Assembly (NCBI GenBank): GCA_041667185.1
Contig: JBAYFM010000001.1
Coordinates: forward strand, 32,052 to 96,051
From: Patescibacteria group bacterium
GTDB lineage: Bacteria > Patescibacteriota > Patescibacteriia > SG8-24
Direction: 5' to 3'
DNA: 64,000 bases
Position 1 is the first letter of the stretch. Each line of letters starts with the position of its first letter. Shown here one piece after another: positions 165 to 10,324 of this stretch. The translations under genes and the position numbers were made by a program. The notes beneath the pieces were generated by a model. The model did not search any database, was not told the origin of the DNA, and saw only the letters and a list, made by a program, of their open reading frames with translations.

Positions 165-908
165 ATGAAAGAACAACTGGAAAAGGACCTGCAACAGATC
201 GGTCTGTCGGAAAAAGAGGCCAAGGTCTACCTGGCGTCTTTGGAGCTCGGTCCGTCGACCGCGCAGACCATCGCCGCCAAGGCCACAGTCAACCGCCCGA
301 CCACTTACGTGATGATCGAGTCGCTCATCAAACGCGGCCTCATGAGCTCGTTCCAGAAAGGGAAGAAGAGGTTTTTTTCTGCTTCTAGTCCTCGACAAAT
401 GGGATATATTATTCAGCAAGAAAAAAATGAGCTCAAAAGAAAGGAACAAATAATTGAGGATATTTCAAAACAATTGAGCAGTGTAATCGATCCGAAGTCA
501 TCAATGCCCACCGTGCAAGTTTTTGAGGGTATTGCCGGTATTCAAGCGGCACAGAGCGATATTTTACAAACAGCTGCCAATGAATTGTTTGAATTGACGT
601 CCATGGATGAGTCTAGACAAATTTTGCCTCTTATTTACGAGAACGATATACGTCGAAAGATATTAGATAAATATAAAATAAAATCTTTATATTCGAGCAA
701 GTTGGGCTCGACCGAGGTAAAACATAAAAATGTCGATTCGAGAATGTTAAGCGATAAGCAAAAAGTCGCGTGTGACGTAATTATCTACGGAACCAAAGTT
801 TTATTGATATCTTACGATGGAAGCGCAAGCTGCGTATTATTGAATGGCCAGAAAATTGCCACAACTTTTAAAACGTTATTTTTGTCACTTTGGGAAAACG
901 CAAAATAA
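165..908 (+). CDS. TrmB-family transcriptional regulator, tandem paralog 1
   Basis: N-terminal winged-HTH of TrmB type (LSEKEAKVYLASLELGPSTAQTIAAKATVNRPTTYVMIESL). ATG at 165 is in frame within track ORF 111..908. The 5' third of the gene is GC-rich and the remainder AT-rich. Confidence 0.6.
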   Translation: MKEQLEKDLQQIGLSEKEAKVYLASLELGPSTAQTIAAKATVNRPTTYVMIESLIKRGLMSSFQKGKKRFFSASSPRQMGYIIQQEKNELKRKEQIIEDISKQLSSVIDPKSSMPTVQVFEGIAGIQAAQSDILQTAANELFELTSMDESRQILPLIYENDIRRKILDKYKIKSLYSSKLGSTEVKHKNVDSRMLSDKQKVACDVIIYGTKVLLISYDGSASCVLLNGQKIATTFKTLFLSLWENAK

Positions 909-909
909 T

Positions 910-1671
910 ATGTCTGTGAAACCATACGAAGCACAATTGAGCAAGTTAGGTTTTTCCGATAAGGAGGCTCGGGTGTATTTAGCTAGTTTGGAGTTGGGAC
1001 CCTCGCCAGTTCAGGCTATAGCACAAAAGGCCGGAGTAAAAAGAGCAACAACGTATGTAATGATTGAGGCGCTACGTGATCGCGGATTAGTTTCAACTTT
1101 TGAAAAGGGGAAGAAGACAATGTTTGTAGCAGAATCACCAGAAAGGTTGATGCACATTCTCGATCAGGAGGGAGAAACGATTATAAATAAAAAACGGCTT
1201 CTAGAAGATTTAATGCCGGATTTGGTTGCATTTCTTCGTGCCGCGGGTGATAGGCCCAACATATTATTTTATGAAGGCATCGAAGGGCTTAAGGCGATTC
1301 ATGAAGACATCCTAAGGACTAACGATAAGACTTTAGAAAATATTGTCGCGCTCGATGATGTATTAAAGGTGGAATCATCGCCGGATGATGTCGCTGTATT
1401 TCGTAATAGTCTTCATAGTAAGGGTATCGCGATTAGAATCCTTTATTCGTCTAAGTCAAAAGAAATTGAGTTACCGTCCAGGTTCTCATCTTGGGTGGTA
1501 AAAAAGATCCCGTACGAAAAAATGCCGCTACATGGTGAGATTACACTTTATGGTGATAAGGTCGCGGCATTTTCCTATAGAGGAAAGATTTTTGGGACTA
1601 TTATCGAAAGTAAGGAAATCGCACAGACTATAAGAGTTTTGTTTGAGTTGGCATGGGCGTCCATAAAATAA
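910..1671 (+). CDS. TrmB-family transcriptional regulator, tandem paralog 2
   Basis: Same N-terminal motif (FSDKEARVYLASLELGPSPVQAIAQKAGVKRATTYVMIEAL). ATG at 910 lies 1 nt after the stop of the previous gene. The whole gene is AT-rich. Confidence 0.6.
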   Translation: MSVKPYEAQLSKLGFSDKEARVYLASLELGPSPVQAIAQKAGVKRATTYVMIEALRDRGLVSTFEKGKKTMFVAESPERLMHILDQEGETIINKKRLLEDLMPDLVAFLRAAGDRPNILFYEGIEGLKAIHEDILRTNDKTLENIVALDDVLKVESSPDDVAVFRNSLHSKGIAIRILYSSKSKEIELPSRFSSWVVKKIPYEKMPLHGEITLYGDKVAAFSYRGKIFGTIIESKEIAQTIRVLFELAWASIK

Positions 1672-1950
1672 AAAAAGCGGCTGCTTGAGTTAGCGCCACT
1701 TTTGCCGAAGAGATTCGAAGTTGGCTAGTTTTATGAGAGGTGGTAGTTAGCTACCACCGGGGCAGTGAGCCACCGGCCGTAGAAGCCAGCGTTGTCGTAT
1801 TGGAAAGAGCCACATTTTGCTACCCTCCGGTCCCCGGAGATGAAAAGGAGATACTGGTGTGGGGACCATGTTGTGAAGATCGTCGTCGACGACTTCCACA
1901 AGACGGCAATATAACATCAGTTCACCAACTTGTCAATAGTCACTGACAAT

Positions 1951-1982
1951 AAAACTCGCCCCCTCAGCAGGGGCGAGTTTGA
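1951..1982. terminator. Rho-independent terminator hairpin, bidirectional
   Basis: aaaactcgcccc-tcagca-ggggcgagttt: a perfect stem flanked by an A-run and a T-run. Confidence 0.55.
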
Positions 1983-2094
1983 TTGACCAGATGTTTTGAT
2001 CGCGATATTTTGAGTTTTTTCGAAGCTGATCCAGCTTGGGGCGTTCGCGGCCGGTTTAGGCGTTGTTTTCAAGACTCCCGCTCCGTGTTAATCT

Positions 2095-3444
2095 ATGGCC
2101 ATGAAAAGCAAGCTGAAAAAATTGGTTCCGGCCCGTTTTTTTGACGTTTACCACCTGGTCCTGGCTTATTTCGCGGCCTGGCGCCATGGCTTCCCATCGG
2201 AGAAAATGATCGTCATCGGCGTGACCGGCACGAACGGCAAATCGACCACCGCGAATCTCATCGCCCGCATCCTCGAGGAAGCGGGGGAGAAGGTCGGTCT
2301 CACGACGACCGTCAATTTCCGCATCGCCGGCCAGGACTGGCTGAACGACACCAAGATGACCATGCTCGGGCGATCGCGCCTGCAGGCGCTCCTGGCGCGG
2401 ATGGTCGCGGCCGGCTGCCGCTACGCCGTGGTCGAAACCTCTTCCGAGGGCGTCAAACAGCATCGCCACGCGGCCATCAATTATGACGCCGTCGTTTTCA
2501 CGAATCTGACGCCGGAACACCTGGAGTCGCACGGCGGCTTCGAGAATTACAAGCGAGCCAAGGGCGAACTGTTCCGCCATCTGACCGCGCGGCCGGTCAA
2601 GAGATTCGGCGGCCGCGAGATCGTTAAAACTTCCGTCGTCAATCTGAACGATCCGCACGCCGGATATTTCTTGTCTTTCGCCGCGCCGAAGAAGATCGGT
2701 TATCGCGCGGAACTGCCCGGCCGCAGCGCCGTCGCCGCCGCTGTGGATGAAACAACGGTCGCGACCGATGTCCGCGTCACCACCGAAGGTTCCGCGTTCA
2801 GCGTCGGCGGCGCCGCGTTCTTGCTGAAATTGCTCGGCGCTTTCAATGTCGAGAACGCGCTCGCGGCCATCGCGGTCACGAGCAGCCTCGGCGTGCCGCT
2901 TGCGACCGCGGCCCGGGCGCTCGCCAAGATCGAGGTCGTCCCCGGACGCATGGAATTCATCGCGGCCGGCCAGCCGTTCGCCGTGCTCGTCGATTACGCC
3001 CCGGAACCGGAATCCTTCCGCAAATTATACGAAGCGGTCGCCCTGTTCCCGAAGAAGCGCATCATCCACGTGCTGGGTTCCTGCGGCGGCGGCCGCGACC
3101 GCGATCGCCGGCCGGTGCTCGGACGCCTGGCCGCGGAGCACGCCGATATTGTGATCGTCACGAACGAGGATCCGTACGACGACGACCCGCTGGAGATCAT
3201 CCGCGAGGTCGCCGCCGGAGCGCGCGCGGCCGGCAAGCGAGAGAGGGAGAGTCTCTTCCTGGTTCCGGAGCGCCACGAGGCTTTGCGACAAGCTGTTGAT
3301 CTAGCCGCGCCCGGCGACCTGGTCATCGCGACCGGCAAGGGCGCGGAGCAAGCCATCGTCGGCGCGCACGGCGCCAGACAACCCTGGGATGAACGCGTCG
3401 AATTGCGCCGGCTCATCGCCCGCCGGCTCGCCGACGGTAAATAA
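2095..3444 (+). CDS. Mur ligase family protein (MurE/MurT-like)
   Basis: P-loop GVTGTNGKSTT, Mur ligase middle-domain architecture and a C-terminal domain. It lacks the usual N-terminal domain of MurC-F. Confidence 0.6.
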   Translation: MAMKSKLKKLVPARFFDVYHLVLAYFAAWRHGFPSEKMIVIGVTGTNGKSTTANLIARILEEAGEKVGLTTTVNFRIAGQDWLNDTKMTMLGRSRLQALLARMVAAGCRYAVVETSSEGVKQHRHAAINYDAVVFTNLTPEHLESHGGFENYKRAKGELFRHLTARPVKRFGGREIVKTSVVNLNDPHAGYFLSFAAPKKIGYRAELPGRSAVAAAVDETTVATDVRVTTEGSAFSVGGAAFLLKLLGAFNVENALAAIAVTSSLGVPLATAARALAKIEVVPGRMEFIAAGQPFAVLVDYAPEPESFRKLYEAVALFPKKRIIHVLGSCGGGRDRDRRPVLGRLAAEHADIVIVTNEDPYDDDPLEIIREVAAGARAAGKRERESLFLVPERHEALRQAVDLAAPGDLVIATGKGAEQAIVGAHGARQPWDERVELRRLIARRLADGK

Positions 3445-3452
3445 ACCTCGCT

Positions 3453-4145
3453 ATGTCGCTGCTCAAAGCCGTCAAACTGAAAGAGGGGGAGATCGTCGTG
3501 ATGATCCTGCGTCATTTTCCGCTGGTCTACGCGCCGCGGGTCCTGGCTGGCCTTTTGCTCGTGTCCGCGCCGTTCTTTTTCATGGTGCCGCTCTTCGCCA
3601 TGCGAGGCTTCGGCGTGCCGTGGGGGCTGTTCATTTTCGCCGCCTCCGTGCTGGCCGGCCTGCTCCACTCTTTGAAGACCTTTGTCGTCTGGTATTGGAA
3701 CGCTTTCATCATCACCAATCTGCGCGTCATCGACGTCGACCAGCGCGGTTTTTTCGAGCGCACCGTTTCGGAGGCGGCGTATGACAAGGTCCAGGACGTT
3801 TCGTATAAGATCAAGGGATTCTGGGGGACGCTCCTGAATTACGGCACGCTGATCATCCAGACCGCCGGCACCACTTCGAACCTGGAGTTGGAGTACGCGC
3901 GCGATCCCAAAGAGGTGCAGCACCTGCTCTCCGAGATCTTGGCCGCGCGACTGGCGGTGCCGGCTGGCGCTCGCAACGAGAAAGTCTCGGCGCTGCTTGA
4001 GGCGGCGGCGAGCCTGACGGATATCGAGGCCAAGGCCTTCCTAGTCGAACTCAAAGGAGCGGTAAACAACAAGGAGCCGAGGTCGGAGGCGGTCGATCAG
4101 GCCGACGTCGAGAAACTGATGAAGGATGATTCGGCGCAGGATTGA
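3453..4145 (+). CDS. Bacterial PH-domain (YdbT/bPH_2-like) membrane protein
   Basis: Two N-terminal TM helices followed by a bPH_2-like region (FWGTLLNYGTLIIQTAGTTSNLELEYARDPKEVQHLLSEI). Confidence 0.5.
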   Translation: MSLLKAVKLKEGEIVVMILRHFPLVYAPRVLAGLLLVSAPFFFMVPLFAMRGFGVPWGLFIFAASVLAGLLHSLKTFVVWYWNAFIITNLRVIDVDQRGFFERTVSEAAYDKVQDVSYKIKGFWGTLLNYGTLIIQTAGTTSNLELEYARDPKEVQHLLSEILAARLAVPAGARNEKVSALLEAAASLTDIEAKAFLVELKGAVNNKEPRSEAVDQADVEKLMKDDSAQD

Positions 4146-4577: not shown

Positions 4578-5588
4578 ATGCCTATGGCCGAAGAAGAGAA
4601 ACAGGAGTCCCCGGCGATGCCGGAAAAAGTCGAAGCGCCGATCCCGTCGGCGGAACCGGTTAAAACCAGGACCGTCAAATCCGTTGCCCGGAGTTTTGCG
4701 CTGGGTCTCGGAGCCGGCGTGATCCTGCTGGCCCTGATCCTATTGGCGGTTTTCGCGATCGGTATCTACAAGTACAACTGGAGCGGTCCGGCCACCACGG
4801 CCGTGCTCAAGGCGGTTCCGTATCCGGCGGCCATGGTCAACAACAACATCATTACTTACGCTGATTTTCTGGCCGACGTGGATACATTGAAGCATTTCTA
4901 TGCCAAGCTGGCGGCTGAGAATGCCGGCGCTCCGGCCGCGCCGGCGGAACCGGAGATCCGCAAGAACGTCCTGGACCGCCTGATCCAGAATGAGATTCTC
5001 AAGGAACAGGCGCTGAAGTACGATCTCAAAGTGACGGCGGAAGAGGTCGATGCCGAGTTCGCCAAGCTTTCGAGTCAGAGTGAGGGTTCAAGCGTCGAGC
5101 AGGAGATCATGGATCTCTACGGCTGGACCGTCCCCGAGTTCAAGGAAAAGGTCCTGGTGCCGTATCTCCTGCAGCAGAAGCTGGCCGAGGTGCTGGCCAA
5201 GGATGAAGCGTTCAACAAGGAGGCCGCGGACAAGGCTGCCGAGGTGGCGGCCAAGGCCAAGGCGGGCGAGGATTTCGCCGCGCTCGCGGCCGAGTACAGC
5301 GCCGATCTGTCGAACTCCAAGACCGGCGGCGAGCTGGGCTGGTTCGCCAAGGGTCTCATGGTGCCGGAGTTCGAGGCTGCGGCTTTCGCGCTCAAGGCCG
5401 GCGAGATCAGCGACCCAGTCAAGACCTCGTTCGGTTATCACATCATCAAAGTGTCGGAAGTGAAGACGGACAAGGATGGCGCCGTGACCGAGGTGAACGC
5501 GGCTCATATCCTGATCCAGACGATGACTGTCGAGGAGTATCTGCAGAAGCTGGTCGACGCGGCCAGCGTCAAGAAGATGGTCGAGTAA
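4578..5588 (+). CDS. Parvulin-type peptidyl-prolyl isomerase (SurA/PrsA-like) with N-terminal TM anchor
   Basis: PpiC domain ([48 protein letters not shown]), a chaperone-like SurA_N region and a TM helix. Confidence 0.65.
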
Positions 5589-5595
5589 GAATATA

Positions 5596-5628
5596 TAAAA
5601 AGCGCCCGGCATCAGCCGGGCGCTTTTG
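5596..5628. terminator. Rho-independent terminator, bidirectional
   Basis: aaaaagcgcccggc-atca-gccgggcgcttttgg. Confidence 0.6.
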
Positions 5629-5727
5629 GTATCTTGGAAAGCGGCAGTCCAGGCTCCGGCGTCCGCGGGGCGGCAATAAAAAGACCGCGGAGAAGATCAT
5701 CCGCGGTCCGAGCCGGTCGTCTGTTTT

Positions 5728-6309
5728 TCATTCTTTTCTGCCGTGGAGGTGAACCTGGTCGTGCGTCCATTCGTTCTTCAGGGCCTCGGTCAGCAGCGCC
5801 TCGGTCTCCGGGTCCAGTTGGCCCTTGAGTGCCTTGAGCAAAGCGTAGCCCTGACAGGACAGCCCGAGCCGCTTCTCCATGGACCGGTAGTACTTATACG
5901 CCAGCCACAGGAACGGCGACAGCGGCACTAAGAATGGCAGTGAGAAAAAGGCGACGCCGATCTCGCCGGAACCCCCGGGTCCATTGTCGAGAAGCCACGC
6001 GCTGGAGTAGGTATGATCGATCCGGCGCGTCTCATAATTGATAGCGATCGTACATGGCTCTAGAGCCTCCTGCTCGTCGTACTTGTAGTGCAGATCCATG
6101 TTGATGCATCTCAATGGCGGATATAGGTGACCCTTCGATGGATCACAGGTTGCGACTGGAGGCCAATCCAGTTCGTGGCGTTCGCGTTCCCGGCGCGTTT
6201 CAAAGTCGTGGTCGACCGTCAGTTTCAGCCGGTGCGGCGGGCGAACCCAGAAATTGATGCCTGAGAGGACGATAGACGGTATCAGAGCCAGTTTTTCGGT
6301 GAACTTCAC
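5728..6309 (-). CDS. Hypothetical protein, N-terminal hydrophobic segment
   Basis: ORF 5728..6483(-). The likely start is GTG at 6309, preceded by AGGAGG at 6 nt spacing (rc of ttcttcctcctgg). No recognisable domain. Upstream sequence runs into the repeat array. Confidence 0.4.
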   Translation of the reverse strand: MKFTEKLALIPSIVLSGINFWVRPPHRLKLTVDHDFETRRERERHELDWPPVATCDPSKGHLYPPLRCINMDLHYKYDEQEALEPCTIAINYETRRIDHTYSSAWLLDNGPGGSGEIGVAFFSLPFLVPLSPFLWLAYKYYRSMEKRLGLSCQGYALLKALKGQLDPETEALLTEALKNEWTHDQVHLHGRKE

Positions 6310-6418
6310 GTTCTTCCTCCTGGTTGCGATCGAGCTTGTCGGCCCAATCTGCAGAGAAGATGTCAACGAACTGCTGATAATCTGGCAGTATTCCGATGAG
6401 AAGTCAACGGGCCGATAT

Positions 6419-7140
6419 TCAAAAGCGCCGAGCTTACGCCCGGCGCTTTCATTTGTGGAGCCACCTCGGGGAATCCGGCTCACCCGGCGGCGCTGGAAAA
6501 GTTCTCATGTGCGCCGCCTCCTTCGCCGCCCGCCGCATCTCGCCGTGCCATACTAGGCACGGCTCGCTGTCGGCTTCGATTCCCCGACCTATCTCTATAC
6601 GTAAAAAGCGCCTGGGATGAACCCAGCCGCTTTTTATGATGGAGCCACCTCGGGGAATCCTCCTCCCCCGCAGCTCGTCACTTGGGGCCCCTACCCCAAG
6701 TACTCACTGCTCCTCCGGAGCCCGGGTCGTCTCGGCTTGCCATACTAGGCAAGCCTCGCCGTACCCTTCGATTCCCCGACCTATCTCTATACGTAAAAAG
6801 CGCCTGGGATGAACCCAGCCGCTTTTTACGATGGAGCCACCTCGGGGAATCCTCCTCCCCCATAGCCCGTTACTTGGGGCCCCTGCCCCAAGTACTCACT
6901 GCTCCTCCGGAGCCCGGGTCGTCTCGGCTTGCCATACTAGGCAAGCCTCACCGTACCCTTCGATTCCCCTTCGGTGGCTTCTATATTTCAAAAGCGCCGA
7001 GCTTGCGCCCGGCGCTTTCATTTGTGGAGCCACCTCGGGGAATCGAACCCCGGACCTCTGCTTTACGAAAGCATTGCCCTACGGCGTGTCGGCCATGCTT
7101 GGCCGACATTTGGATAGGCGGCTAAGGCCGCCACCTCTAG
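6419..7140. repeat. Tandem array of ~184-193-bp units carrying copies of the tRNA-Thr 3' end plus terminator-like hairpins
   Basis: tggagccacctcggggaatc recurs at 6456, 6640, 6832 and 7025; the 7025 copy matches tRNA-Thr over 53 nt. Two hairpin types alternate: aaaagcgccgagctt(a/g)cgcccggcgcttt at 6419 and 6990, and aaaaagcgcctgggatgaacccagccgcttttt at 6603 and 6795. Units beginning cgattccccgac at 6577, 6769 and 6961 have an exact 192-bp period. Confidence 0.75.
7025..7140 (-). pseudogene. tRNA-Thr-like degenerate copy (3' 53 nt identical to tRNA-Thr, 5' half rearranged with an inserted hairpin)
   Basis: Identical to the genuine tRNA-Thr from the CCA end through the anticodon stem. It then diverges: a 5' strand that could still pair with the acceptor (rc gccgcct) and a gtcggccatgcttggccgac hairpin replacing the D-arm. 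Confidence 0.35.
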
Positions 7141-7253
7141 CCGCAAGCCGCAGTATCGGACGAACTTAGCGCCTTTGCGCGAAGTTCTGTCCGGCGGCTT
7201 ACCAGCTGAGCATGAGGCAAACGAAAAACGGCCGCTTGCGCGGTCGTCTTTCG

Positions 7254-7329
7254 TGGAGCCACCTCGGGGAATCGAACCCCGGACCTCTGCTTTACGAAAG
7301 CATTGCTCTACCAGCTGAGCTAAGGTGGC
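7254..7329 (-). tRNA. tRNA-Thr (anticodon CGT), CCA encoded
   Basis: rc folds as a canonical cloverleaf: GCCACCT / TA / GCTC-AGCTGGTA-GAGC / A / ATGCT-TTCGTAA-AGCAG / AGGTC / CGGGG-TTCGATT-CCCCG / AGGTGGC / T / CCA. Anticodon CGU. Confidence 0.9.
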
Positions 7330-7400
7330 GTCTGTGTGATGGGACCAGCTAAGCTGGTCTCACCTCGCTTTTTTCGCTTTTTAAACCGAGCTGAGCTCGG

Positions 7401-7474
7401 TGGAGCGGGTAACGGGAATCGAACCCGTGTCTCAACCTTGGGAAGGTCGCATACTACCATTGTACTATACCCGC
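7401..7474 (-). tRNA. tRNA-Gly (anticodon CCC), CCA encoded
   Basis: rc: GCGGGTA / TA / GTAC-AATGGTA-GTAT / G / CGACC-TTCCCAA-GGTTG / AGAC / ACGGG-TTCGATT-CCCGT / TACCCGC / T / CCA. Confidence 0.9.
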
Positions 7475-7613
7475 CCGGATAGCTGCAGGCGCGATTTGTC
7501 CCCAGCTGAGCCTGATCCCGCCTCATCCGGCACGCTTGGTCAAAGACGCGAATTATTATATACTTGTCCTATATCTTTGCAAGAACGCCGCCCCGGCAGC
7601 GGCCCAGAGGACC

Positions 7614-8294
7614 ATGATCCGACTTAAGAGCGTCACCAAATTTTATCCTCACGAAGTCGTGGGGCTCAAGAGCGTCAACCTGCATATCCGGCCGGGCGAG
7701 TTCGTGTCCGTGGTCGGCCAGAGCGGTAGCGGCAAGACGACGCTCGCCAAACTGCTCATCGCCGAAGAACGCCCGACCAAGGGCCAGATCATCATCGGCG
7801 GCTGGGATATTTCCGCTATCAGATCTTCGGAGATCCCGCTCCTGCGCCGGCAGATCGGCGTGGTCTTTCAGGATTTCAAACTGCTGCCCAAGAAGACCGT
7901 CTATGAGAACGTCGCGTTCGCTCTCGAGGTCTGCGGTGCGAGTTCCAAAAAGATCGCGAGCATCGTGCCGCAGGCGCTGAAGATCGTCGGGCTCTTGGGC
8001 AAGGGCGACCGCTATCCGTTCCAGATCTCCGGCGGCGAACAGCAGCGCGTGGTCATCGCCCGCGCCCTTGTCCACCGGCCGAAGATCATCGTCGCCGACG
8101 AGCCGACCGGCAATCTCGATTCCATCAACACCCGCGAGATCATCGATCTCCTGAAGAAGATCAACGAGTTCGGCACGACGGTGGTCCTCGTCACCCATAA
8201 TCGCGAGGTCGTGAACGAACTCCAGCGGCGCGTCATCACCATCGACAAGGGCCTGGTCGTTTCCGATCAGGAGGAGGGGAAATACGTCCTATGA
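7614..8294 (+). CDS. ftsE: Cell division ATP-binding protein FtsE
   Basis: ABC ATPase with Walker [10 protein letters not shown], signature ISGGEQQRV and Walker [13 protein letters not shown]. About 227 aa. A GAGGA motif precedes ATG 7614. ftsX follows directly. Confidence 0.9.
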
Positions 8295-9208
8295 GCTTCG
8301 TCTCCCTCGGCCGCGTCATCAGATTCGGCGCGCAGAATTTCACCCGCAATGTCTGGCTCGCGGCCGCGACCGTGAGCGTTCTGGCGCTCACGCTCGTGTC
8401 CATCAACTGCCTGGTCGTCGTCAATCTGCTCGGCAAGGTCGCGATCGACCTGGTCAAGTCCAAGATCGACGTCGCGGTCCATTTCAAGCCGGAGATCGAG
8501 GAGGAGCGGGTACACACCGTCCGCGTGTCGCTCCTGTCGCTGCCGGAGGTCAAGGAAGTGGAGTATGTTTCGCCGGCCCAGTCGCTGGAACGGTTCTCGC
8601 AGCTGTACAAGAAGGACGAGCTGATCCAGAAGTCGCTCGGCGAGATCGGCGACAATCCGTTCGGTTCGACCCTGATCGTCAAGGCCAAGGCGCTCGACGG
8701 TTATCCTAAGATCATCAAAGCGCTCGACGAACCGATCTTCTCGACCCTGATCGAGGAAAAAGATTTCGACGACCGCGAAATCATGATCAGTCGTGTCGAG
8801 CAGGTCGCGCGGCGCGTCGAGACCTTCGGCTTCGGCGCCAGCCTGTTCTTCGGCCTCATCACCCTGCTCATCATCTTCAACACCATCCGTGTCTCGATCT
8901 ACACCCATCGCGAAGAGATCCGCATCATGCGCCTGGTCGGAGCCGCTGACAGCTTCATTCGCGGACCGTTCTACGTCGAGGCGATCTTGTGGAGCACGCT
9001 CGCCATGCTGGCGGCGGCCGCCCTGATCTATCCGCTGCTCAGCCTGCTGCAGCCGTTCGTGCAATCATTCTTCGGCACGACCTCCGTGGATCTGCTGGGT
9101 TTCTACCGGGTTAATTATCTGCGTATTTTCGGTTCGCAGTATCTGGCCGTGGTCGTCATGGCGCTCGTCACGACCAAGCTGGCGACCGGACGGTATCTGC
9201 GCGCCTGA
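8291..9208 (+). CDS. ftsX: Cell division permease FtsX
   Basis: Four-TM FtsX topology with a large extracellular loop. Overlaps the ftsE stop (ATGA). Confidence 0.85.
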   Translation: MSFVSLGRVIRFGAQNFTRNVWLAAATVSVLALTLVSINCLVVVNLLGKVAIDLVKSKIDVAVHFKPEIEEERVHTVRVSLLSLPEVKEVEYVSPAQSLERFSQLYKKDELIQKSLGEIGDNPFGSTLIVKAKALDGYPKIIKALDEPIFSTLIEEKDFDDREIMISRVEQVARRVETFGFGASLFFGLITLLIIFNTIRVSIYTHREEIRIMRLVGAADSFIRGPFYVEAILWSTLAMLAAAALIYPLLSLLQPFVQSFFGTTSVDLLGFYRVNYLRIFGSQYLAVVVMALVTTKLATGRYLRA

Positions 9209-10043: not shown

Positions 10044-10114
10044 TCGGGGGTCGTCTAAAGGTAGGACCGCAGCCTTTGAAGCTGCTTATCTTGGTTCGAT
10101 TCCAAGCCCCCGAG
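10044..10114 (+). tRNA. tRNA-Gln (anticodon TTG), CCA not encoded
   Basis: TCGGGGG / TC / GTCT-AAAGGTA-GGAC / C / GCAGC-CTTTGAA-GCTGC / TTAT / CTTGG-TTCGATT-CCAAG / CCCCCGA / G. U1:A72 and G73 are typical of bacterial tRNA-Gln. Confidence 0.85.
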
Positions 10115-10324
10115 CCGAGTCGATTATCGCTGGCGCCGCGCGAAGCTGCTTACCGCAGGTCCGTCCGTCAGGACGGACATTATAAATACGCGGCGGTGGC
10201 CGCCACCGCTTGCGGCAAGCCCGCCCTGGTTCCCGCACGAAGTGCGGGGCGGGCTTATCTTGGTTCGATTCCAAGCCCCCGAGCCGAGTCGATTATCGCT
10301 GGCGCCGCGCGAAGCTGCTTACCG
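10084..10324 (+). repeat. 72-bp direct repeat (tRNA-Gln 3' 31 nt plus 41 nt downstream) flanking a ~98-bp hairpin-rich spacer
   Basis: gcttatcttggttcgattccaagcccccgagccgagtcgattatcgctggcgccgcgcgaagctgcttaccg occurs identically at 10084-10155 and 10253-10324. The spacer contains hairpins gtccgtccgtcaggacggac and gcggtggccgccaccgc. Confidence 0.75.

Follow-up and report, generated by a model that had tools for sequence, protein, structure and literature searches.

The repeat array downstream of tRNA-Thr

The 64-kb window analysed here is a stretch of the genome of a Patescibacteria (candidate phyla radiation, CPR) bacterium whose closest GTDB species representatives, as judged by FtsE (75% identity), are Candidatus Uhrbacteria-like. 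It carries on its minus strand a short tRNA-Gly/tRNA-Thr operon, followed by a tandem array of tRNA-Thr 3' ends and hairpin-rich modules. tRNA genes were called with ARAGORN and Rfam 15, and the tandem period with Tandem Repeats Finder. The plus-strand 20-mer TGGAGCCACCTCGGGGAATC, which is the reverse complement of the last 20 nt of tRNA-Thr(CGT) and extends from G57 in the T-loop to the encoded CCA, is present as five exact copies, all on the same strand (starts at 6456, 6640, 6832, 7025 and 7254, the last one belonging to the intact gene). Shuffled sequences are expected to contain none, and no sixth copy is found even when 3 mismatches are allowed. The copies are 184, 192, 193 and 229 bp apart. 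These results are in agreement with a preliminary description of this DNA, which had reported the four displaced copies with a spacing of 184-229 bp. The exact 192-bp period that it proposed is also recovered, both by Tandem Repeats Finder (2.2 copies, 93%, over 6538-6969) and as a 68-nt segment occurring three times at exact 192-bp steps (6518, 6710 and 6902).

The copy starting at 7025 is indeed an exact 53-nt match to tRNA-Thr, as previously described, and the repeat extends to 65 nt at 95% identity (7018-7082 with 7247-7311). It is nevertheless not a mere fragment, but the 3' part of a nearly full second copy of tRNA-Thr, in which an acceptor/D-arm remnant is separated by an insert of ~120 nt, with three hairpins, from a 3' part that starts at the anticodon stem. 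Against the Rfam tRNA model, this broken copy scores 24.2 bits for a threshold of 29, and only the two intact tRNAs pass. Its insert, hereafter E0core, is 78% similar over 46 nt, and in the same plus orientation, to an insert found elsewhere in the window behind tRNA-Gln (10155-10252; see below).

Beyond the broken copy lie three modules of ~150 nt, named U1 to U3, each with an inverted copy of the T-arm (CTTCGATTCCCC, starting at 6574, 6766 and 6958). One such copy per unit had been noticed before; the one at 6958-6981 is longer than described and continues through the acceptor strand (GGTGGC). U2 duplicates U1 in tandem with a step of 192 bp, the two being about 93-95% identical. The 5' domain of U3 is homologous to its counterpart in U1 and U2, with six fully compensated pairs, and its 3' domain is a different hairpin.

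Every unit is flanked by terminators working on the tRNA strand. These had been described as two alternating types of hairpin, which is not what is found: their order on the plus strand is A, B, B, A, followed by a third type, T0. A 58-nt direct repeat composed of terminator A and the 20-mer, 98% identical to 6418-6475, brackets U1-U3. The relatives L110, L111 and L105 have a native tRNA-Thr terminator to which terminator B is homologous, and T0 resembles the terminator that arrives with an inserted module in L100 (see below). On the minus strand, the order is thus promoter, tRNA-Gly, tRNA-Thr, T0, broken tRNA-Thr, A, U1, B, U2, B, U3 and A' (Table 1). The promoter of the operon is the sole promoter-like site predicted near the array, and none is predicted inside it. 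The intervals between repeats are 164-176 bp long in the window (127-176 bp in several genomes), none of the array intervals contains an open reading frame (ORF), and the array region folds far better than shuffled sequences (z = -19.9).

Table 1. Coordinates of the array and of its neighbours in the 64-kb window.
Feature	Position	Strand	Remarks
Promoter of the tRNA-Gly/tRNA-Thr operon	7555-7582	-	Predicted; sigma-70-like, TTGCAA-16-TATAAT
tRNA-Gly(CCC)	7401-7474	-	Intact; ARAGORN, Rfam
tRNA-Thr(CGT)	7254-7329	-	Intact, CCA encoded; repeated part 7254-7273; ARAGORN, Rfam
Terminator T0	7222-7253	-	Right after the intact tRNA; GCAA loop, one G-U pair on the tRNA strand; plus-strand hairpin 7222-7253
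Second tRNA-Thr copy, broken	7018-7220	-	5' acceptor/D-arm remnant 7199-7220 (GCTCAGCTGGTA, 12/12); insert 7078-7198; 3' 53 nt of the tRNA 7025-7077
Insert E0core	7078-7198	+	Hairpin-rich
Terminator A	6987-7024	-	Forms the 58-nt direct repeat with the 20-mer; plus-strand hairpin 6989-7018
Module U1	6832-6981	-	Antisense copy (including GCCACC) 6958-6981; core 6852-6957 with hairpins P2/H1 and H2; 20-mer 6832-6851
Terminator B	6794-6831	-	Bidirectional; plus-strand hairpin 6794-6830
Module U2	6640-6781	-	Inverted copy 6766-6781; core 6660-6765; 20-mer 6640-6659
Terminator B, second copy	6602-6639	-	Plus-strand hairpin 6602-6636
Module U3	6456-6589	-	Inverted copy 6574-6589; core 6476-6573; 20-mer 6456-6475
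Terminator A'	6418-6455	-	Distal end of the array; plus-strand hairpin (type A) 6420-6449
Orphan membrane-protein gene	5728-6309	-	Neighbour, not demonstrably part of the array

Occupied and empty sites at tRNA genes of strains and relatives

Related loci, amounting to ~590 kb, were gathered by scanning metagenome contigs for the 20-mer and by collecting the loci around FtsE homologues. In an independent JGI contig (L082), the array is 100% identical to that of the window. In an ENA contig from a strain 98.7-99.5% identical (L081), the same array is found minus exactly one 192-bp unit: the absent stretch corresponds to 6574-6765 and includes most of U2, and the junction of the deletion falls, to the left of the 20-mer, within 64 bp shared without any difference by the two copies. 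The array is therefore not an assembly artefact, and its copy number varies within the population.

Variable occupancy of the tRNA-Thr site among relatives, which the preliminary description had suggested looking for, is also observed. The site is empty in L103, L110 and L111, where tRNA-Thr and its terminator adjoin the gene of a PpiC-type isomerase (PpiC). The interval between PpiC and tRNA-Thr is ~170 nt in L103 and ~100 nt in L110, and reaches ~1.7 kb in the window and more than 3.5 kb in L107/L108. In the latter two, six small ORFs (3.4 kb, at 400-3700) occupy the position of the window's array and orphan gene; they have no Pfam domains and no tRNA fragment at their far side. In L100, a single module is located between tRNA-Thr and its terminator, the context being the same as in L084 and L094, which lack the module. 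The difference is a clean 147-bp insertion bounded by the 20-mer, which brings a foreign terminator and a core in a single piece and supplies a new downstream terminator.

Modules of the same architecture are found behind three kinds of tRNA gene: tRNA-Thr (L100, L091 and L096), tRNA-Gly (L008) and tRNA-Gln (L105 and L106). Their end repeats follow the local tRNA, while the interior keeps one architecture. In L008, the 3' end of the module is the last 22 nt of the adjacent tRNA-Gly. In L105/L106, the antisense 5' repeat (GGGGCTTGGAACC) and the sense 3' repeat (GATTCCAAGCCCC...) are both derived from tRNA-Gln, and the terminator forms part of the direct repeat, which is 57 nt long and about 90% identical; the module is present in L106 and absent at the tRNA-Gln of L110 and L103. 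L091 contains tRNA-Thr, a B-like terminator and the start of a window-type module, at which the contig ends. A covariance model of the module (R1) found no further members, and no copy away from tRNA genes, in 658 kb.

The window itself holds a second occupied site. tRNA-Gln(TTG), at 10044-10116, is followed by a 169-bp insertion (region 10044-10323), composed of the 98-nt insert with three hairpins mentioned above (10155-10252) and of a perfect 72-bp direct repeat, which corresponds to positions 41-73 of tRNA-Gln plus 38 nt of flank. The otherwise near-identical L082 has an empty site at this tRNA-Gln, and such events are thus recent in the population.

The preliminary description had proposed that the array consists of serial att-site duplications left by an integrase. 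The direct 3' fragments, their classical start points and the variable occupancy bear out part of this proposal; the short intervals, the conserved module and the lack of a recombinase do not fit it. In its classical form, i.e. scars of kilobase-sized prophages or genomic islands inserted serially at tRNA-Thr by a tyrosine integrase and then almost entirely deleted, we consider it highly improbable. It could account for direct fragments starting in the T-loop and at the anticodon stem, as well as for the variation of the locus among relatives, including the 3.4 kb of small ORFs in L107/L108, and tandem arrays of islands are known at tRNA genes (tDNAs) (PMC4383910; PMC9897764). It would nevertheless require four independent deletions that each spared about 130-175 bp, and, when compared with other genomes, what is left is homologous, structured and of similar size. 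As had been noticed before, no integrase remains: Pfam searches of the 58 ORFs of the window found no integrase, transposase, reverse transcriptase or Cas domain, and no recombinase gene is evident in the occupied loci either. IMG/VR contains no match for the 20-mer or for two unit motifs (a looser core motif gave 101 matches, all attributable to chance), and, in BLAST searches of GenBank phages and PLSDB plasmids, the array matches through tRNA-Thr-like sequence only. An attP site of a phage or plasmid was rejected on the same results.

Alternatively, the array might be inert local debris, with neither a mobile element nor a function behind it: repeated slippage, unequal crossing-over and hairpin-templated template switching at the tRNA 3' end and its terminator would have given rise to partial copies, both direct and inverted. 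Copy-number change is seen directly in L081, with a crossover in the 64-bp identical stretch, and the direct repeats often include the local terminator (58 nt in the window, 72 nt at tRNA-Gln and 57 nt in L106). Partial tRNA copies, some with small D-loop or T-loop hairpins, are moreover common beside the intact tRNA genes in many of the fetched loci, and palindromes can keep their arms complementary without selection. On the other hand, nothing else in the locus is a source for the cores, which are not tRNA-derived, different genomes have cores of this architecture behind three different tRNAs, and the L100 insertion brings its foreign terminator and core in one clean piece. Debris as the whole explanation thus seems quite unlikely to us.

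The orphan gene next to the array had been considered as possible leftover cargo. It has its own promoter (TTGACT-N17, near 6365-6396), no Pfam domain, and its only homologues (64-66% identity) are found in unrelated contexts; no tRNA fragment is present beyond it. It can therefore not be demonstrated to be cargo. Further away, after PpiC, a bidirectional terminator at 5598-5627 is 79-83% complementary or similar to the type A hairpins, so that type A may be a duplicated copy of that terminator. At the edge of the window, positions 400-2000 are AT-rich (GC 0.37-0.48, versus about 0.6 elsewhere) and contain two adjacent paralogous genes of TrmB-type regulators (111-908 and 844-1671); this stretch may have been horizontally acquired.

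Several other arrangements were observed at tRNA genes of the fetched loci. A degenerate tRNA-Gly copy, with a ~50-nt D-loop insert and a 25-nt T-loop hairpin, lies upstream of the intact tRNA-Gly in L218 (1-290, minus strand), and a hairpin of 18-19 nt lies inside the T-loop of a tRNA-Gln 3' fragment in L010 (8230-8277). The motif TTGGCAGGCGGGGCA is found just downstream of tRNA-Thr in L013 (~1860-1925), L026 (~5890-5960) and L010 (~5560-5635), and is followed in L013 and L026 by a copy of the tRNA anticodon arm; these loci may hold a further family of inserts associated with tRNAs, unless they represent an odd tRNA-like gene. In L016 (4285-4700), the intact tRNA-Gln is preceded by an insert of ~300 nt, and this insert by a copy of the first 34 nt of the tRNA; the ORF of this insert looks by eye like a GIY-YIG nuclease, and the whole resembles a homing-endonuclease element with a 5' target duplication. 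In L030 (3725-5593), the last 21 nt of tRNA-Arg(CCG) are repeated 1.8 kb downstream; an ABC-transporter gene (589 aa) stands alone between the two copies, no integrase being present, which looks like a one-gene cassette at a tRNA end. Finally, L091, L218 and L219, which are metagenome contigs from close relatives, end inside or next to tRNA-Gly/tRNA-Thr repeats, as if these repeats broke short-read assemblies; two of them, L091 and L219, were obtained from one sample and may be parts of a single genome.

Architecture and fold of the modules

On the tRNA strand, a module begins with an antisense copy of the T-loop and of the 3' strand of the T-stem (GGGGAATCGAA), which reaches GCCACC in U1. This copy is followed by GAA, by a hairpin domain (an outer helix, a GNGA/GAGA internal loop and an inner hairpin with the loop TAGTAT), by a second hairpin, by the tRNA sequence from G57 to CCA and by the terminator. 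A short non-coding body is thus flanked by terminal inverted repeats (GGGGAATC...GATTCCCC, ~20 nt in U1). A stem closing the conserved three-way junction can arise in two ways, by pairing of the two ends of a module or by pairing of the antisense copy, across the terminator, with the tRNA end that precedes it. This layout, which delimits the proposed family, is found in U1-U3, L096, L100, L008, L105 and L106, and in L091 as far as it can be read, the contig stopping within the core.

The compensatory changes pointed out by the preliminary description are present in the window: the arms CCGTGCC/GGCACGG at 6544-6565 correspond to GCTTGCC/GGCAAGC at 6736-6757 and 6928-6949, and the CTTGGGG/CCCCAAG hairpin changes in its loop only. 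Covariation was assessed on a hand-curated, N-padded alignment of seven units, fitted to the structure; the MAFFT alignment of the units was structurally wrong, and the hand alignment was used for this reason. The outer helix (P2) and the inner hairpin (H1) are 100% paired in all cells of this alignment, with changes on both sides in 13 of their 15 pairs and one-sided changes in none. No shuffle out of 500 matched the observed pairing and covariation, and pairing falls to 25-48% when the 3' partner is slid by 1-3 columns. Each of the six units tested, when folded by itself, adopts the same three-way junction, closed by a stem that the two tRNA-derived repeats form; the z-scores range from -4.5 to -6.8 in the window units and L106, and are -2.9 in L008 and -1.5 in L100. 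Among the closest copies (U1, U2 and L096), none of the nine variable positions falls in the closing stem, in the four outermost P2 pairs or in the inner hairpin.

These properties could also be those of structured small RNA genes, in which the three-way junction would be closed by a mimic of the acceptor/T-arm 'top half' ending in NCCA; such RNAs might be produced from the tRNA operon by read-through of its terminators and cut to size by the enzymes of tRNA processing, their copy number being under selection. The covarying helices and the fold common to all units, with its low z-scores in the window, are consistent with this possibility. In addition, the tRNA-sense strand folds better than the antisense one in six of the seven units, and it is on this strand that the few wobbles read G-U; an acceptor-like stem of 6 bp, which leaves a TCCA end free, is present in U1, and the 20-mer is 100% conserved in all copies while its flanks have diverged. 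The last point is, however, equally explained by the origin of the 20-mer from a tRNA gene, and the 5' strand of the acceptor-like stem is degenerate in U2, U3, L096 and L008. Furthermore, no promoter is predicted within the array and each unit is enclosed between terminators of the tRNA strand, only about 0-9% of the pairs predicted in a unit are G-U, and the element, being absent from close relatives, is dispensable. Rfam does not recognise it either: with Rfam 15 (the families considered being tRNA, tmRNA, YrlA, group I intron, ribozymes and RNAs associated with insertion sequences (IS)), only tRNAs were found over 5000-9000 at E <= 10, with nothing on the units, and only tRNAs in the L100 locus at E <= 1. 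We therefore regard small RNA genes, and their expression by read-through and trimming, as unlikely. The tandemly amplified structured RNA envisaged by the preliminary description is thus retained for its structure, since a covarying module exists in other genomes and one unit is a tandem duplicate, and a possible action as RNA has to be weighed against the lack of a predicted internal promoter, the enclosing terminators and the rarity of G-U pairs.

Origin of the array

Neither of the two earlier readings, att scars or structured RNA, is sufficient, and each is partly right. We infer that the modules are insertion elements, that the array has grown by their serial insertion and that the hairpins are kept for mobilisation. 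More precisely, we give about an even chance to the array being an accretion of undescribed, miniature insertion modules that are flanked by tRNA ends, dependent on their structure and non-autonomous, followed by recombination between the repeats. In each event, a hairpin-forming module would be placed at a loop of the tRNA; for U1-U3, this would be the T-loop, between positions 56 and 57, and for the copy at 7018-7220 the D-loop/anticodon-stem region. One intact tRNA would be kept and a displaced tRNA 3' end left behind, often with a terminator, the tRNA 3' half thus acting as the attachment site. The fragments of the array start in the T-loop and at the anticodon stem, i.e. in the two classical crossover regions of tDNA-integrating elements (PMC4383910), which argues for serial insertion. 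Homologous recombination between the repeats would then have duplicated one unit, as suggested by the 192-bp period, and would be the probable route by which the unit missing from the sister strain L081 was deleted.

The conserved hairpins would be needed by a mobilising machinery, with an enzyme that would act in trans, most likely as folded single-stranded or cruciform DNA and possibly as RNA. The insulation by terminators with their G-U pairs on the tRNA strand, the lack of an internal promoter and the rarity of G-U pairs in the units point to DNA, while the better folding of the tRNA-sense strand and the acceptor-like stem of U1 keep RNA alive.

Several points weigh against this scenario. 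No integrase, transposase or reverse transcriptase is found in the window or in the occupied loci, where no recombinase gene is evident, so that the mechanism of mobility has to be inferred, and a double-stranded circle of 127-190 bp would be too small for ordinary integrase chemistry. Several direct repeats run ~38 nt past the tRNA into its terminator, at three loci, and this behaviour fits no simple model. The L096 module is window-type, with a Thr-type 20-mer end, yet the tRNA gene before it is tRNA-Trp, a position not expected from simple target duplication. The native-type terminator B stands in the middle of the array and not at its far end, so that the history needs at least one block insertion or rearrangement. 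As to the fold, the covariation alignment was fitted by hand to the structure, and template switching in quasi-palindromes can also produce compensatory changes of palindromes in the absence of selection.

The unity of the family has also to be weighed. In plain local alignments, the cores of L100, L008 and L106 (group B) are mutually similar (z = 3.7-6.9), and no significant similarity is detected between them and the window cores (group A). When a model was built from L100, L008 and L106 alone, with the tRNA-derived part removed, the cores of U2 and U1 ranked first and second in 128 kb, and in register, with window-wide E-values of only 0.44 (U2) and 0.92 (U1). As the positions were fixed in advance, we take this match as real but weak support for a common family, which is otherwise suggested by the shared architecture.

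The antisense copy at the 5' end of the modules could alternatively reveal a novel type of self-targeting mobile element, a possibility that we find very doubtful. This copy of the T-loop, T-stem and acceptor might serve as a nucleic-acid guide, or might rebuild the target duplex in a folded single strand, and in this way direct a host or trans-acting enzyme to the T-loop of any matching tRNA gene. Each insertion would restore a guide next to its target, and the change of both end repeats with the tRNA (Thr, Gly, Gln) would be explained. In a variant, the unit circle (tRNA end, terminator, antisense copy and core) would be a rod-shaped rolling-circle or retro-replicon of ~150-190 nt, tagged with a tRNA 'top half', and the tandem array an integrated multimer.

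Returning to the accretion of insertion modules, one of its closest parallels is found in the islands and prophages of tRNA genes, whose attL and attR sites with a displaced 3' tDNA fragment are the basis of the Islander principle (PMC4383910) and which leave tRNA gene fragments (PMC9897764). The array shares with them an intact tRNA followed by direct copies of its 3' end, fragments beginning in the T-loop/T-stem region or in the anticodon arm, tandem accretion, empty sites in relatives and, in L100, inserted DNA that supplies the new downstream terminator. Unlike them, its intervals are only 127-176 bp long, with no gene and no integrase, and consist of a conserved hairpin module whose first part is antisense to the same segment of the tRNA; the direct repeats running ~38 nt past the tRNA are another difference.

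The size of the modules (110-190 bp), their non-coding nature, their terminal inverted repeats (8-20 bp), their strong fold-back, their presence/absence polymorphism and the need for an enzyme in trans recall, by description, miniature inverted-repeat transposable elements (MITEs) and cis-mobilizable elements (CIMEs). Both are non-autonomous, and CIMEs keep att sites without recombination genes. In contrast to MITEs, the inverted repeats of the modules are the target tRNA's own sequence and change with the tRNA, their direct repeats are 20-72 bp instead of the usual 2-10 bp, and there are no dispersed copies away from tRNA genes in the 64-kb window or in the related loci.

Integron attC sites and the attP site of the CTX phage recombine as folded single strands. 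As in these sites, the structure of the modules is conserved while the sequence varies, the palindromes are imperfect, tandem units stand beside a fixed entry site, and the stem rebuilds the duplex of the target site. The modules differ from them by the lack of an integron integrase gene and of an R-box consensus, and by their entry at a tRNA T-loop and not at attI or dif. Finally, group I introns occur in tRNA genes of Patescibacteria (bioRxiv 10.1101/2025.07.03.662931), and are likewise non-coding, structured elements inserted at tRNA loops in the same phylum; the inserts described here are only 100-130 nt long, give no model match and leave the intact tRNA unsplit beside an interrupted or fragmentary copy.

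Other classes of repeats were considered and rejected. A CRISPR array is inconsistent with 'spacers' (U1-U3) that are homologous to each other and to units elsewhere, and with the absence of cas domains. For an integron cassette array, a tyrosine recombinase is lacking, and the arms GATTCCCC/GGGGAATC do not correspond to the R''/R' consensus (RYYYAAC...GTTRRRY). The unit is too long for type III toxin-antitoxin repeats, and the neighbouring gene has its own promoter; an invertible promoter switch disagrees with the single orientation of all copies in all strains. The junctions are inconsistent with the GTTC targeting of IS91-type elements and with the TTAC targeting of IS200/IS605. A permuted or two-piece tmRNA gave no match (ARAGORN found no tmRNA at all), and an archaeal-type tRNA intron does not agree with an intact tRNA standing beside interrupted copies that are degenerate. 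A known RNA family is set aside by the Rfam searches of the units (see above).

All these results indicate that the module looks like a previously undescribed insertion element, and neither like a phage scar nor like a known RNA gene. Patescibacteria have very small genomes and few recognised mobile elements. Partial tRNA copies and small hairpin inserts are nevertheless numerous at the tRNA loci of these Patescibacteria. Should the module prove to be a mobile element, it would be, with no gene at all, the smallest one described that targets tRNAs, and its ends, built from the target sequence, would offer a new handle on the programming of site-specific insertion. It would also explain assembly breaks at tRNA loci, as several contigs end inside or next to the array. 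If it is an RNA, it would represent a new class of structured RNA with a tRNA-like terminus. In either case, annotators should be warned that such fragments are neither tRNA genes nor a proof of a former prophage.

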